The notes under the pieces: model-generated | The model's input: the letters and a program-made list of their open reading frames with translations, nothing else | Databases searched by the model: none | Told to the model about the DNA's origin: nothing | Made by a program: the position numbers and the translations under genes | In this document: one piece after another, positions 3,180 to 36,036 of the stretch | Layout of the letters: each line of letters starts with the position of its first letter | How positions within the stretch are numbered: the stretch's first letter is position 1 | From: Burkholderiaceae bacterium | GTDB lineage: Bacteria > Pseudomonadota > Gammaproteobacteria > Burkholderiales > Burkholderiaceae_F | NCBI GenBank assembly: GCA_017461315.1 | Contig: JAFTYR010000004.1 | Span: forward strand, 5,397-69,396 | DNA: 64,000 bases | Direction of reading: 5' to 3'

Positions 3180-3929
3180 ATGTTACTGATACCCGCAATC
3201 GATATCAAAGATGGTAAGTGTGTTCGTCTTCGCCAAGGCGATTTAAATTCTAATATTTCCGTCTTTAATGATGATCCTGTAGCTCAAGCACGACATTGGG
3301 TTGAACTCGGTGCAGAAAGATTGCATTTAGTTGATCTTGACGGTGCTAAGAGCGGAAAGCCTGTAAATCTTCCAGTGATTCGTAAAATTGTGAATGAATT
3401 CTCAAACGATGTGGAATTTGAAGTAGGCGGTGGCATGCGTACCTTAGAGCGCATCGGTGATGTCCTTGATCTCGGTGTTGACTATGTTGTGATTGGTACC
3501 GCAGCGGTGAAAGCCCCAGGCTTTTTGCACGATGCTTGTTCTAACTATGGTGGAAGCATTATCGTGTCTCTGGATGCTAAAGACGGCATGGTGATGACAG
3601 ACGCTTGGACTAAGAATACAGGCCACAAGGCCATTGATTTGGCTCGTAAATTTGAAGGCTATGGTGTTGATGCAATCCTTTATACCGATATTAGTCGTGA
3701 TGGTATGTTAACGGGGTGTAATGTCGATGCAACGGCTGAATTGGCTCGAGAAGTTAATATTCCAGTGATTGCGTCCGGTGGTATTCGTGATATTGAAGAT
3801 ATTCGTAAGTTGCTTGAAGTAGAAGACGATGGTGTTGAAATGGCTATCTTAGGTCGCTCTCTTTATGAAGGAACCTTGGATTTCACAGAAGCTTTAGAAC
3901 TGGTGAATTCTTTCGATAGTGAGGAATGA
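3180..3929 (+). CDS. hisA: ProFAR isomerase
   Basis: 249 aa. [16 protein letters not shown]-terminus and (beta/alpha)8 HisA-like sequence. Confidence 0.95.
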
Positions 3930-14030: not shown

Positions 14031-14104
14031 TGGAGCGGGTGAGGGGAATCGAACCCCCGTCGTCGGCTTGGGAAGCCGTCGCTCTACCATTGAGCTACAC
14101 CCGC
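14031..14104 (-). tRNA. tRNA-Gly (anticodon CCC)
   Basis: The reverse complement reads GCGGGTGTAGCTCAATGGTAGAGCGACGGCTTCCCAAGCCGACGACGGGGGTTCGATTCCCCTCACCCGCTCCA. It folds as a cloverleaf with anticodon loop TTCCCAA and an encoded CCA. Confidence 0.93.
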
Positions 14105-16752: not shown

Positions 16753-16828
16753 TGGTGGGAACACAGGGATTCGAACCCGGGACCGACGGATTAAGAGTCC
16801 GCTGCTCTACCAACTGAGCTATGTTCCC
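16753..16828 (-). tRNA. tRNA-Lys (anticodon CUU), copy 2
   Basis: The reverse complement is GGGAACATAGCTCAGTTGGTAGAGCAGCGGACTCTTAATCCGTCGGTCCCGGGTTCGAATCCCTGTGTTCCCACCA, with anticodon loop CTCTTAA. Confidence 0.93.
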
Positions 16829-16890
16829 AATAAATGTTGCTTGCTAATCAGCTATACGGAAATAAACAGAATAGTTGGAAAGAATAAGAT

Positions 16891-16966
16891 TGGTGGGAAC
16901 ACAGGGATTCGAACCCGGGACCGACGGATTAAGAGTCCGCTGCTCTACCAACTGAGCTATGTTCCC
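16891..16966 (-). tRNA. tRNA-Lys (anticodon CUU), copy 1
   Basis: Identical 76-nt sequence to 16753..16828. Confidence 0.93.
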
Positions 16967-16989
16967 ACTCAGGATACTCTTACGAGTTT

Positions 16990-17065
16990 TGGTGGGTTGT
17001 GCGAGACTCGAACTCACGACCAATGGATTAAAAGTCCACTGCTCTACCAACTGAGCTAACAACCC
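16990..17065 (-). tRNA. tRNA-Lys (anticodon UUU)
   Basis: The reverse complement is GGGTTGTTAGCTCAGTTGGTAGAGCAGTGGACTTTTAATCCATTGGTCGTGAGTTCGAGTCTCGCACAACCCACCA. Confidence 0.93.
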
Positions 17066-33764: not shown

Positions 33765-34829
33765 TTAGCAACAGCGTTGACGACGGTCGCGTACGGATTT
33801 TGCTAATGTTTCGAGAACTTTTTTTGTATCTTCCCAACAGATACAAGCGTCTGTCACAGACAGACCATATTGGAGATTCTTACCGTCACCAATAGGCTGA
33901 TTGCCTTCGACTAAATTACTTTCAATCATTACCCCCATGATGTTGGAATTACCGTTAGCGACTTGCTTAGCAACATTGTTGACAACATCAATCTGCTTCT
34001 TAAATTGTTTTTCACTGTTAGAGTGACTGACGTCAATCATCAAGTTTGGAGTAATCCCAGCATTTTTTAGCTGTTCAACGGCTGAAGCAACGCTGACTTC
34101 ATCGTAATTTGGTTGTTTTCCACCACGTAAAATAACGTGACAGTCTTCATTGCCGTTAGTAACCACAATCGCAGAGTGACCACCCTTAGTGACGGAAAGG
34201 AAGACATGTTCGTGACGAGAAGCTTTTACTGCATCAATCGCAATTTTTACATTACCGTCGGTACCATTTTTAAAGCCAACTGGACAAGATAAACCGCTTG
34301 CAAGCTCTCTATGAACCTGACTTTCGGTGGTTCTTGCTCCAATGGCACCCCAGGCGATAAGGTCTGCAATGTACTGTGGGGTGATCATATCGAGGTATTC
34401 GGTCGCAGCAGGGACTCCCTTTTCGTTAATATCTAGGAGCAACTCTCTAGCTAATCTCAAACCGTGATTAATACGGAAGCTACTATCTAAGTCTGGGTCA
34501 TTAATGAGTCCTTTCCATCCCAGAGCGGTTCGTGGTTTTTCAAAATACACGCGCATAATGATTTCTAAATCCTGCATGTGTTTACGACGTAATTCGGCAA
34601 GTTTGTCTGCGTATTCGAGAGCGGCTTCTGGATCGTGAATAGAACAGGGGCCGACAATCACGAGTAGACGATCGTCACGGCCATGGATGATGTCTGAGGC
34701 AGAAGAGCGGGCATGATGAACGGTGGCTGAAGCAACCTTTTCACACGGGAACTCTCGAATTAAATGAGACGGTGGTGTCAGTTCACGAATTTCTTTGATT
34801 CGTAAATCATCGGTCGTGTAATTCTGCAT
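33765..34829 (-). CDS. aroG: class I (AroG-type) 3-deoxy-7-phosphoheptulonate (DAHP) synthase
   Basis: 354 aa. MQNYTTDDLRIKEIRELTPP..., GPCSIHD, RVYFEKPRT and GARTTESQVHRELASGLSCPVGFKNGTDG are nearly collinear with E. coli AroG. Confidence 0.95.
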   Translation of the reverse strand: MQNYTTDDLRIKEIRELTPPSHLIREFPCEKVASATVHHARSSASDIIHGRDDRLLVIVGPCSIHDPEAALEYADKLAELRRKHMQDLEIIMRVYFEKPRTALGWKGLINDPDLDSSFRINHGLRLARELLLDINEKGVPAATEYLDMITPQYIADLIAWGAIGARTTESQVHRELASGLSCPVGFKNGTDGNVKIAIDAVKASRHEHVFLSVTKGGHSAIVVTNGNEDCHVILRGGKQPNYDEVSVASAVEQLKNAGITPNLMIDVSHSNSEKQFKKQIDVVNNVAKQVANGNSNIMGVMIESNLVEGNQPIGDGKNLQYGLSVTDACICWEDTKKVLETLAKSVRDRRQRCC

Positions 34830-34862
34830 AGGTATTTTCCTTTCTTATCATGAGGCCATCCA

Positions 34863-34898
34863 TTAAAAAACCGCCTGAGGTTTGAACCTTAGGCGGTT
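34863..34898 (-). terminator. intrinsic terminator about 35 nt upstream of the aroG ATG (the terminator arm of the candidate attenuator)
   Basis: RNA AACCGCCUAAGGU-UCAA-ACCUCAGGCGGUU followed by UUUU. The flanks CAUCCAUUAA and UUAAUGGAUG can extend the helix. Confidence 0.75.
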
Positions 34899-34915
34899 AA
34901 TGGATGTTTTGAGTT

Positions 34916-34996
34916 TTATTTGGTACGCATCAGCATCTTCCGCCTATTTGTGGAATAGTAAAAATAAAACGAAAAGCTAAAGCGTACGTTAGACAT
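34916..34996 (-). CDS. candidate Phe/Tyr-rich leader peptide (26 aa) of aroG
   Basis: ATG 34996 to TAA 34916 encodes MSNVRFSFSFYFYYSTNRRKMLMRTK. Seven of the nine codons 6-14 are Phe or Tyr. No clear SD. It is too short for the ORF track. Confidence 0.6.
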   Translation of the reverse strand: MSNVRFSFSFYFYYSTNRRKMLMRTK

Positions 34997-35076
34997 ATCT
35001 GTCAGGTTCACAAAATGATTGAACTGTTAAAAATATAACTCAAAAAATAGGAATAAACGAAAATAGAAAAACTTTT

Positions 35077-36036
35077 TTAAAAATCACTCATAAAGAAGAA
35101 CACAGTACAGTGATAGAAGACGGGAGCAGCGAAGAAAAGCATCTCCATCTTATCAAGTACACCACGCGTGAGCATGTAGCTGGTATCTAGTCTTTTAGCC
35201 CCTAGTGAACGTTTTATCGAGGTCATCACTAGGCCACCCAAGGTACCCGAGATGATAATCACCAATGACATGAGCGGAGCCTGCCATGCTCTAAATGGGG
35301 TAAGCCAAAAGAGTGCAGAACCCATGAGGAGTGCTCCAAAACTACCAATAAAGATTCCTTTATAGGTCTTATAAGGGTTACTGAATGTAGGACGACCCTG
35401 CCAAATAGCACTTGCCATGATCTGGAAAAGATCTGCAAAGTAAAGTACTAATAGGAAGTAAAGCATCAATAACAGTCCATTTGAATGGTACCGTTGTAAG
35501 TTAAGTGTTGCAATTGCAGGAGCATGGCTGATACAGAACACAGTTAACATAATGCCCCACTGTACCTTTGCAACACGCTCTAAGAAGCGATCCATGTTTT
35601 TCCCGAGTGCCATCACAACAGGAAGCGTCAGGAAAAGATAGATTGGAATAAATAACGTAAAGAGGCCAATCGCATCAAATCCCAAAAAGATGTATTGCAA
35701 GGGAATAGCGATGTAGAACGCAATGATCAGGATAAGATGATCTTGCCTTCTAGTAGGCGTTAATGCAATAAATTCTCGTAATGCAAAAAAAGACATTAAA
35801 GCGAAAATAAAAAGAAGCGCAATTTCACCAACGCAAAAAGCGATTGTAAAGATGATAATTAAAGGCCAAGAAGAACGAACCCTGGAATTAACAATACGGA
35901 TACTGTTCGTTCGTACTTCATTTCCTGTAGCCCGCTTTGCTAACCAACTCCCTACAAACGTACCAATAGTAGAGAGCAAAATTAAAACAGCGAGAATCGT
36001 AAAAAACGCTTCTTGAGTAGAAAAGCCTAGACGCAT
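35077..36036 (-). CDS. CdsA-family (CTP_transf_1) membrane protein with a degenerate catalytic signature
   Basis: 319 aa, polytopic. The C-terminal block TSIKRSLGAKRLDTSYMLTRGVLDKMEMLFFAAPVFY aligns to the CdsA motif KR-x4-KD...PGHGG..DRxD, but with key residues replaced. Confidence 0.7.
   Translation of the reverse strand: MRLGFSTQEAFFTILAVLILLSTIGTFVGSWLAKRATGNEVRTNSIRIVNSRVRSSWPLIIIFTIAFCVGEIALLFIFALMSFFALREFIALTPTRRQDHLILIIAFYIAIPLQYIFLGFDAIGLFTLFIPIYLFLTLPVVMALGKNMDRFLERVAKVQWGIMLTVFCISHAPAIATLNLQRYHSNGLLLMLYFLLVLYFADLFQIMASAIWQGRPTFSNPYKTYKGIFIGSFGALLMGSALFWLTPFRAWQAPLMSLVIIISGTLGGLVMTSIKRSLGAKRLDTSYMLTRGVLDKMEMLFFAAPVFYHCTVFFFMSDF

Follow-up and report, generated by a model that had tools for sequence, protein, structure and literature searches.

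In Escherichia coli, entry into the aromatic pathway is controlled by the repressors TyrR and TrpR, and in Corynebacterium glutamicum a leader-peptide attenuator, aroR-aroF, has reportedly been described by Neshat et al. in 2014. PMC11802643, which summarises that work, states that the aroR leader, which carries Phe-Tyr-Phe, is located upstream of the aroF operon and that read-through is enhanced under phenylalanine (Phe) limitation, whereas tyrosine (Tyr) has no effect; this leader had been predicted earlier (PMC4046766). In Acholeplasma, a comparative prediction from the Breaker laboratory places the upstream open reading frame (uORF) motif uORFC-13-1, with 24 representatives, ahead of aroF, and proposes attenuation (PMC8632094), while attenuation of E. 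coli aroF is cited as an old hypothesis in the same paper. TyrR and TrpR have been reported as conserved in Gammaproteobacteria and absent from other proteobacterial classes (PMC5343134), which leaves a regulatory gap that an attenuator could fill in Burkholderiales. [quoted passage not shown] As judged from this sequence and its relatives, the element is very probably a ribosome-mediated leader-peptide transcription attenuator controlling aroG.

The aroG Leader Region of the Window

The locus is read on the minus strand, where all the coordinates that an earlier note on this DNA had given for the leader ORF, the hairpin, and aroG were recovered (Table 1). The attenuator interpretation offered in that note is strongly supported by comparative evidence, namely the presence of the element at 64 of 80 sampled loci, its invariant cores, co-variation, and folding. 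The short ORF upstream of the gene has 26 codons and holds a cluster of cognate codons, since seven of the nine codons 6–14 (TTT AGC TTT TCG TTT TAT TTT TAC TAT) specify either Phe (four, all UUU) or Tyr (UAU, UAC, and UAU). An intrinsic terminator lies between leader and gene: the hairpin AACCGCCUAAGGU-UCAA-ACCUCAGGCGGUU (34898–34869), with 12 pairs and one A·C mismatch (−17.5 kcal/mol), begins 17 nt past the leader stop, leads into a U6 tract, and ends 35 nt before aroG. The product of this gene matches Pfam DAHP_synth_1 (PF00793; E = 2e-98) and the NCBIfam AroG equivalog model NF006723 (586.7 bits, with a cut-off of 568).

Two alternative pairings had been proposed for this leader, and both are recovered. 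The leader segment UAGGCGG perfectly complements CCGCCUA, which lies in the 5' arm of the terminator, and a perfect 7-mer complement of the arm occurs in 0.055% of shuffles of the 98-nt leader. The 181-nt region as a whole folds at −54.2 kcal/mol (z = −5.55, with 0 of 200 shuffles as stable), and its minimum free energy (MFE) structure holds the terminator together with the helix GUACGCUUUAGC:GCUGAUGCGUAC between segments 1 and 2.

Distribution and Conservation of the Element

The comparison covered 80 aroG loci from species-representative genomes, plus the window. The nearest loci, with 69–79% AroG identity, belong to Sutterellaceae (Parasutterella, Sutterella, Mesosutterella, and Duodenibacillus), and the further ones, with 63–68% identity, to Alcaligenaceae, Oxalobacteraceae, and other Burkholderiales. 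In a scan for short ORFs starting with ATG, 62 of 81 regions showed a Phe/Tyr-rich leader ahead of aroG. ORFs encoding six or more aromatic residues in nine were present in 57 of 78 upstream regions, compared to 0 of 78 reverse complements, 2 of 1560 shuffles, and 1 of 71 downstream regions. A covariance model (R1), built from a MAFFT alignment (A1) of 61 elements, detects the element in 64 of the 80 loci, with scores of 44–122 bits and in each case directly upstream of a DAHP synthase gene. The carriers include Sutterellaceae, Alcaligenaceae (among them Bordetella), Oxalobacteraceae, and other metagenome-assembled genomes (MAGs). Three of these copies are additional to the ORF scan (L004, whose leader starts with GTG; L079, which is cut by the contig end; and L012), and exactly one copy is found in the window (35001–34865; 62.5 bits, E about 1e-12). 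Conservation of the Phe/Tyr-rich leader and of the alternative pairings in relatives, which had been named beforehand as the decisive test, is thus seen at these 64 loci and in the window, with pairing flanks that co-vary.

The architecture of the family is uniform in its layout. Leader ORFs span 18–32 codons and carry 6–9 Phe/Tyr codons per nine-codon stretch, and each is followed by an intrinsic terminator of the form AAA-CCGCC-N-GGCGG-U5-10, that is, AAACCGCC...GGCGG-U5-10, typically 25–66 nt before aroG. The only invariant columns of A1 are the leader GGCGG, the CCGCC and GGCGG of the terminator, and the U tract. The leader GGCGG starts 5–17 nt past the last aromatic codon in 62 of 62 loci (8–17 nt in 59 of them), and in 60 of 62 the leader stop codon is placed after GGCGG and before CCGCC.

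The constraint on the leader GGCGG acts at the RNA level. This motif is read in frame 2 in 55 leaders, in frame 0 in six, and in frame 1 in the window, and the peptide residues encoded over it vary (KAV, LAE, GG, RR, and others); its retention in all three frames with differing residues indicates that it is conserved as RNA and not as peptide. Co-variation between segments 2 and 3 was assessed with the invariant cores as anchors, by matching the leader base immediately 5' of GGCGG to the arm base immediately 3' of CCGCC. An arm G after CCGCC goes with a leader C before GGCGG (5/5 loci), and an arm T with a leader A (6/6 loci, window included). Overall, this flanking position is paired in 32 of 59 loci, against 20.8 expected, a value reached by 0 of 2000 permutations. 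A compensatory double change distinguishes the window (UAGGCGG:CCGCCUA) from its closest relative, L001 (GCGGCGG:CCGCCGC), both from Sutterellaceae. The terminator stem co-varies as well, at two core-adjacent positions (50/59 and 31/35 paired, with three pair types each; 0/2000 permutations). The GUACG/CGUAC outer helix between segments 1 and 2 is also found in L006, where its 3' strand encodes other residues in another frame.

This aroG leader element family is clade-restricted. The element is absent upstream of aroG in Neisseria gonorrhoeae, as well as upstream of the DAHP synthase paralogues (55–57% identical) that Burkholderia, Caballeronia, and Mycetohabitans carry on a chromid. The Neisseriales comparator was provided by NZ_CP119142.1 and NZ_CP119140.1 (2.17 Mb, N. 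gonorrhoeae), which are filed as plasmids and are evidently chromosomes. The contig of L004 (CAVJUB010000006.1) is labelled Hallella faecis, a Bacteroidota name, and holds an AroG 72% identical to that of the window with a Burkholderiales-type leader; it is probably a mis-binned Sutterellaceae contig. In addition, about 350 conjugative plasmids from E. coli and Salmonella, many of them from poultry, encode a DAHP synthase about 45% identical to the window AroG, which is unrelated to the leader element.

Folding and Proposed Mechanism

In order to model stalling, each nascent transcript was cut off at the centre of the terminator loop, so that segment 4 was still missing, and was folded while a ribosome footprint occupied one aromatic codon after another. 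With the ribosome on these codons, GGCGG:CCGCC is part of the MFE structure at most stalling positions in 62 of 62 loci, and an antiterminator between segments 2 and 3, exclusive of the terminator, is thereby predicted to become available upon stalling in every locus simulated. Without the ribosome, the same pairing appears in the MFE structure of 18 of 62 loci. In 38 of 62 loci, GGCGG is sequestered in the ribosome-free RNA by the segment holding the aromatic codons, an anti-antiterminator logic that is found in the window and in most, not all, members of the family. In the nascent transcript of the window, the hairpin between segments 1 and 2 reaches −24.3 kcal/mol and buries GGCGG.

A comparison of terminator and antiterminator energies, as advised in the earlier note, favours the terminator in both states. 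For the ribosome-free window element, the conformer with the 1:2 helix and the terminator has −42.4 kcal/mol and the antiterminator conformer −31.8 kcal/mol; a ribosome stalled at codon 12 brings the two conformers to −22.4 and −18.7 kcal/mol, respectively, and narrows the gap to 3.7 kcal/mol. A purely thermodynamic choice was rejected on these grounds, because the terminator conformer remains the more stable one even with the stalled ribosome, and the choice must hence be kinetic (co-transcriptional), as in trp.

According to the mechanism proposed, transcription would start about 10–20 nt upstream of the leader ATG, possibly with a contribution of read-through from the upstream cdsA-like gene. 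When tRNA-Phe and tRNA-Tyr are plentiful in charged form, a ribosome would translate the 26-codon leader up to its stop codon, inside the loop between segments 2 and 3. There it would cover or sterically block segment 2, or, after its release, segment 1 would pair again with segment 2. Segment 3 would then be free to pair with segment 4, forming the terminator before the U6 tract, and the RNA polymerase would halt 35 nt before aroG. When charged tRNA-Phe or tRNA-Tyr is scarce, the ribosome would stall on the UUU/UAY cluster of codons 6–14, melting the 1:2 hairpin, and the exposed UAGGCGG just beyond the ribosome would pair with CCGCCUA as soon as it is transcribed, ahead of segment 4. The terminator would thus be blocked and aroG transcribed.

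An extra complementary pair flanks the window terminator (34855–34906, minus strand), with CAUCCAUU on the 5' side of the stem and AAUGGAUG on the 3' side of the U tract. This pair lengthens the hairpin in the full-length fold, is possible only in read-through transcripts, and is not seen in L001; its CAUC also binds GAUG in the antiterminator conformer. A simple promoter and terminator scan of the window reported neither the hairpin nor the TTGAGT-17-AATCAT promoter. The hairpin was probably missed due to its internal mismatch, or because the last two stem pairs use the first two U residues of the tract, and this negative result was taken as a limit of the scan, as the hairpin is evident in the folds.

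Table 1. Features of the aroG locus in the window, and the second leader unit of Mesosutterella multiformis (positions of its own contig).
Feature	Position	Strand	Remarks
Candidate sigma-70 promoter	35043..35015	-	−35 TTGAGT 35043-35038, 17-nt spacer, −10 AATCAT 35020-35015; putative
Leader ORF	34996..34916	-	26 codons + stop, MSNVRFSFSFYFYYSTNRRKMLMRTK*; ATG 34996, TAA 34918-34916
Regulatory codon cluster, codons 6-14	34981..34955	-	Proposed ribosome-stalling site
Segment 1, outer part	34987..34976	-	GUACGCUUUAGC, pairs with 34934-34923
Segment 2 core	34946..34940	-	UAGGCGG, leader codons 17-19, antiterminator strand
Segment 2, distal part	34934..34923	-	GCUGAUGCGUAC, partner of segment 1
Segment 3, terminator 5' arm	34898..34886	-	AACCGCCUAAGGU; its CCGCCUA at 34896-34890
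Segment 4, terminator 3' arm and U6 tract	34881..34865	-	ACCUCAGGCGGUU 34881-34869; U6 34870-34865
aroG	34829..33765	-	Class I DAHP synthase, AroG type, 354 aa; Shine-Dalgarno AGGA 34841-34838
cdsA-like gene	36036..35077	-	CTP cytidylyltransferase family, Pfam PF01148; outside the attenuator
Second unit of M. multiformis (L005), leader and terminator	3682-3819		Found by R1 downstream of aroG
Second unit of M. multiformis (L005), DAHP synthase	3862-4941

Codon Usage and the Duplicated Unit of Mesosutterella

Ahead of GGCGG, the leaders of the family consist of 30% Phe and 13% Tyr codons, and Phe outnumbers Tyr by 5.1 to 2.2 codons per leader. The Phe codons are strongly shifted to UUU, which makes up 68% of them in the leaders versus 28% in the adjacent aroG genes (odds ratio 5.5, p = 1.6e-27). 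The shift persists in high-GC genomes: where UUC makes up 80% or more of the Phe codons of aroG, UUU still accounts for 61% of those in the leaders, compared to 9% in aroG. Such a preference would be expected if slow wobble decoding, U-rich pairing, or both were selected for.

Mesosutterella multiformis (L005) holds two tandem units, each with leader, terminator, and DAHP synthase gene, and the two enzymes are 86% identical. Its first leader is Tyr-rich (MLNHVYGAYYYYGFF..., with five Tyr and two Phe), while the second is Phe-rich (MNYRARFYFTFNFF...). The regulatory codons have diverged after a recent duplication, as predicted by a role in amino acid sensing, and this suggests an isoenzyme-specific retuning of the sensor after the duplication in Mesosutterella.

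Weight of the Evidence and Alternative Explanations

Several points weigh against the interpretation of the element as an attenuator. The support is computational throughout: the sequence elements, their energetics, and, across more than 60 species, how far they are conserved and co-vary. Leader translation, the promoter, and the response to Phe or Tyr limitation are inferences. Sixteen of the 80 aroG loci have no detectable leader or terminator, including two Sutterella genomes; the latter are MAGs (L010 and L011) at 69% AroG identity. The antiterminator core is short (5–10 bp) and mostly invariant, and co-variation rests on one or two flanking positions; as the permutation tests ignore phylogeny and involve few positions, their outcome may be taken as supportive rather than conclusive. 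Moreover, when the modelled footprint sits at the stop codon, segments 2 and 3 can still pair in 21 of 62 loci, including the window. The terminating branch under replete conditions thus relies on a steric argument or on re-formation of the 1:2 helix, and a steric effect of the ribosome at the stop codon would act outside a model that considers only its footprint.

The start of the leader weighs on the same side, as the earlier note had acknowledged in pointing to the absence of a clear Shine-Dalgarno (SD) sequence and to a mediocre promoter. No SD precedes the leader ATG of the window (34997–35014), and this trait is family-wide: a core SD is present in 25% of the leaders, versus 82% of the aroG starts and 7% of random background positions. 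The start ATG itself is conserved, with GTG in L004. These features hint that the leaders may be translated by SD-independent or short-5'-untranslated-region (5'-UTR) initiation, and the promoter candidate of the window implies a 5'-UTR of about 11 nt. This promoter is indeed mediocre, with an 8/12 match to the consensus, and is missed by a consensus scan. Counterparts are found upstream of the leader in Parasutterella muris (L002; TTGAAG-17-AATCAT) and in L003 (TTGAAA-17-ATAAAT). In P. muris, the nearest ORF upstream of the leader is on the opposite strand, about 400 nt away.

An alternative that the earlier note had itself raised is that the hairpin does no more than terminate the plsC/cdsA-like operon upstream, the Phe/Tyr-rich ORF and the alternative pairings being coincidental. 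On the same strand upstream of the window leader are the cdsA-like gene, an acyltransferase gene, and a TldD/PmbA gene (Pfam), and in the window, as in L001 and L005, a gap of 79–97 nt with no intervening terminator separates the end of the cdsA-like gene from the leader, both being on one strand. Inspection of the sequence between this gene and the window leader (35076–34997) detected no GC-rich hairpin or terminator, so read-through from the cdsA-like gene may also enter the leader, and the window hairpin probably also stops it. However, in L003 the same acyltransferase (plsC)/cdsA pair is inverted and divergent from the leader and aroG, and in L006 the upstream neighbour is an unrelated divergent hydrolase; both loci keep leader and terminator, which argues that the element follows aroG and not the upstream operon. 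A survey of the upstream neighbours by stop-to-stop ORFs, noisy where the GC content is high, served only as a pointer, and three low-GC relatives were verified by ORF lists and Pfam. As the element is kept over about 64 genomes with varied upstream contexts, and as the leader ORF and GGCGG occur far beyond chance, a mere operon terminator is scarcely credible, and attenuation of aroG is much preferred. Very improbable, too, is a functional micropeptide rich in aromatic residues, such as a membrane peptide, with the hairpin as its ordinary terminator and aroG transcribed from its own promoter. The conserved ORF, with its ATG and Phe/Tyr-rich core, would agree with such a peptide, but there is no conservation outside the Phe/Tyr run: the length ranges from 18 to 32 residues, the C-termini are unrelated, and GGCGG is found in three frames. 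The strong bias to the slow wobble codon UUU, the usual absence of an SD, and the switch between Tyr and Phe in the two paralogue units of Mesosutterella all argue against a micropeptide, as does the terminator-aroG gap of 25–66 nt, which leaves little room for a promoter, and the fact that the leader peptides looked for, ten in all, are uncalled in a collection of 15 billion proteins.

Attenuation by a translating ribosome also has to be distinguished from a translation-independent switch, such as a riboswitch-like RNA or an RNA bound by a protein or tRNA, in which the U-rich tract and GGCGG would be structural and the ORF incidental. The conservation of GGCGG as RNA, the scarcity of SD sequences, and the pairing of the U-rich strand with a purine-rich strand in many members would all agree with such a switch. 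Nevertheless, 62 members, plus the GTG variant L004, have an in-frame ORF from ATG to stop in which the aromatic codons share one frame, segments 2 and 3 flank the stop codon in 60 of 62 loci, and the U-rich region is periodic, made of UUY and UAY codons and not of plain U runs. Since there is, in addition, no match to an Rfam riboswitch or T-box, and no conserved aptamer-like structure besides the alternative helices, a switch that dispenses with translation is improbable. A more serious contender retains attenuation and changes its signal: the element might sense the general translation status or a (p)ppGpp-linked slowing of ribosomes, or else Phe alone. The latter is the behaviour of C. glutamicum aroR, for which, according to PMC11802643, only Phe limitation affected the operon in spite of the Phe-Tyr-Phe leader, and the excess of Phe over Tyr codons (5.1 to 2.2 per leader) points in the same direction. 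On the other hand, three Tyr codons lie within the window cluster, and the Tyr-dominated leader of Mesosutterella (five Tyr and two Phe) speaks for functional Tyr codons, at least in that leader. A general or Phe-only signal is thus rather unlikely, though to be reckoned with, and a leader-peptide attenuator that responds to both Phe and Tyr is preferred.

Annotation Status and Significance

The aroG leader family appears to be undescribed and unannotated. Neither the window element nor any of 20 family members matches an Rfam 15 family at gathering score, and miRNA, snoRNA, and rRNA matches in a permissive Rfam scan were dismissed as chance matches to the hairpin. The only gathering-level Rfam matches in the window are to tRNAs, namely a tRNA-Gly(CCC) at 14031–14104 and three tRNA-Lys (two CUU and one UUU) at 16753–17065 on the minus strand. 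The NCBIfam leader-peptide models used by PGAP (pheL, trpL, and others) do not match any of six leader peptides even at E ≤ 10, and none of ten leader peptides occurs in the collection of 15 billion proteins. In full-text literature searches, no description of an aroG leader in Burkholderiales or Betaproteobacteria was found, although a 2004 survey of proteobacterial attenuators was outside the coverage and might contain an earlier listing.

The balance tips slightly in favour of a broader proposal, in which the window element would be the founding example of an undescribed, order-wide family of aroG attenuators that serves as the main transcriptional control of shikimate entry in Burkholderiales, reported to be devoid of TyrR and TrpR, with a retunable Phe and Tyr sensor and SD-less translation. 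If the element works as proposed, the control of entry into the aromatic pathway would be explained for an order that includes gut Sutterellaceae, Bordetella and its relatives, and soil and water Oxalobacteraceae. The mechanism is of a known, textbook type, and what appears to be new is a robust, unannotated family over most of the Burkholderiales sampled. With more than 60 species, this family would enlarge the small set of leader-peptide attenuators, making it a candidate for Rfam and for genome-annotation pipelines. The Tyr-rich and Phe-rich leaders of the recent Mesosutterella paralogues represent a natural experiment in the evolution of sensor specificity, and the frequent absence of an SD raises the question of how translation of the leaders comes about. 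For engineering in Betaproteobacteria, the element could provide a compact Phe/Tyr-responsive part.

Comparison with Known Systems

The closest systems in terms of mechanism are pheL-pheA (RF01859) and pheM-pheST of E. coli, which share with the window element a leader ORF with Phe codons, the 1:2, 2:3, and 3:4 helices, and a terminator just before the gene. The Rfam model of Phe_leader, RF01859, can be aligned with the window element from end to end, at 24.4 bits (E = 0.14) compared to a gathering score of 55 bits; the element works like pheL, yet it is not a member of that family. Unlike pheL and pheM, which are found in Enterobacterales, the Burkholderiales element acts on the pathway entry gene aroG instead of pheA or pheST, combines Tyr and Phe codons, is marked by an invariant GGCGG/CCGCC core, and usually lacks an SD.

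The regulated gene is shared with two other systems. Like the window element, aroR of C. glutamicum is a leader-peptide attenuator of a DAHP synthase gene with both Phe and Tyr codons. However, it belongs to Actinobacteria and contains only the Phe-Tyr-Phe tripeptide, compared to the 6–9 aromatic codons of the aroG leader family; its sequence and structure appear unrelated, and the likeness is functional. In uORFC-13-1, a uORF with Phe codons is located immediately before the terminator of a DAHP synthase gene, as in the window, but this motif is restricted to Acholeplasma (Mollicutes) and environmental sequences, is a different motif built on a U-run that codes for at least one Phe, and has a ribosome-binding site. 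Given the different phyla and leader compositions, homology of the aroG leader to either of them is unlikely.

TyrR and TrpR pursue the same goal as the window element, the end-product transcriptional control of the first committed aromatic step, although they are protein repressors acting on operator DNA, whereas the window element is a switch made of RNA and ribosome. The claim of the earlier note that attenuation of aroG would be a different regulatory solution holds relative to E. coli, but it has precedents in aroR-aroF of C. glutamicum and in uORFC-13-1 of Acholeplasma.

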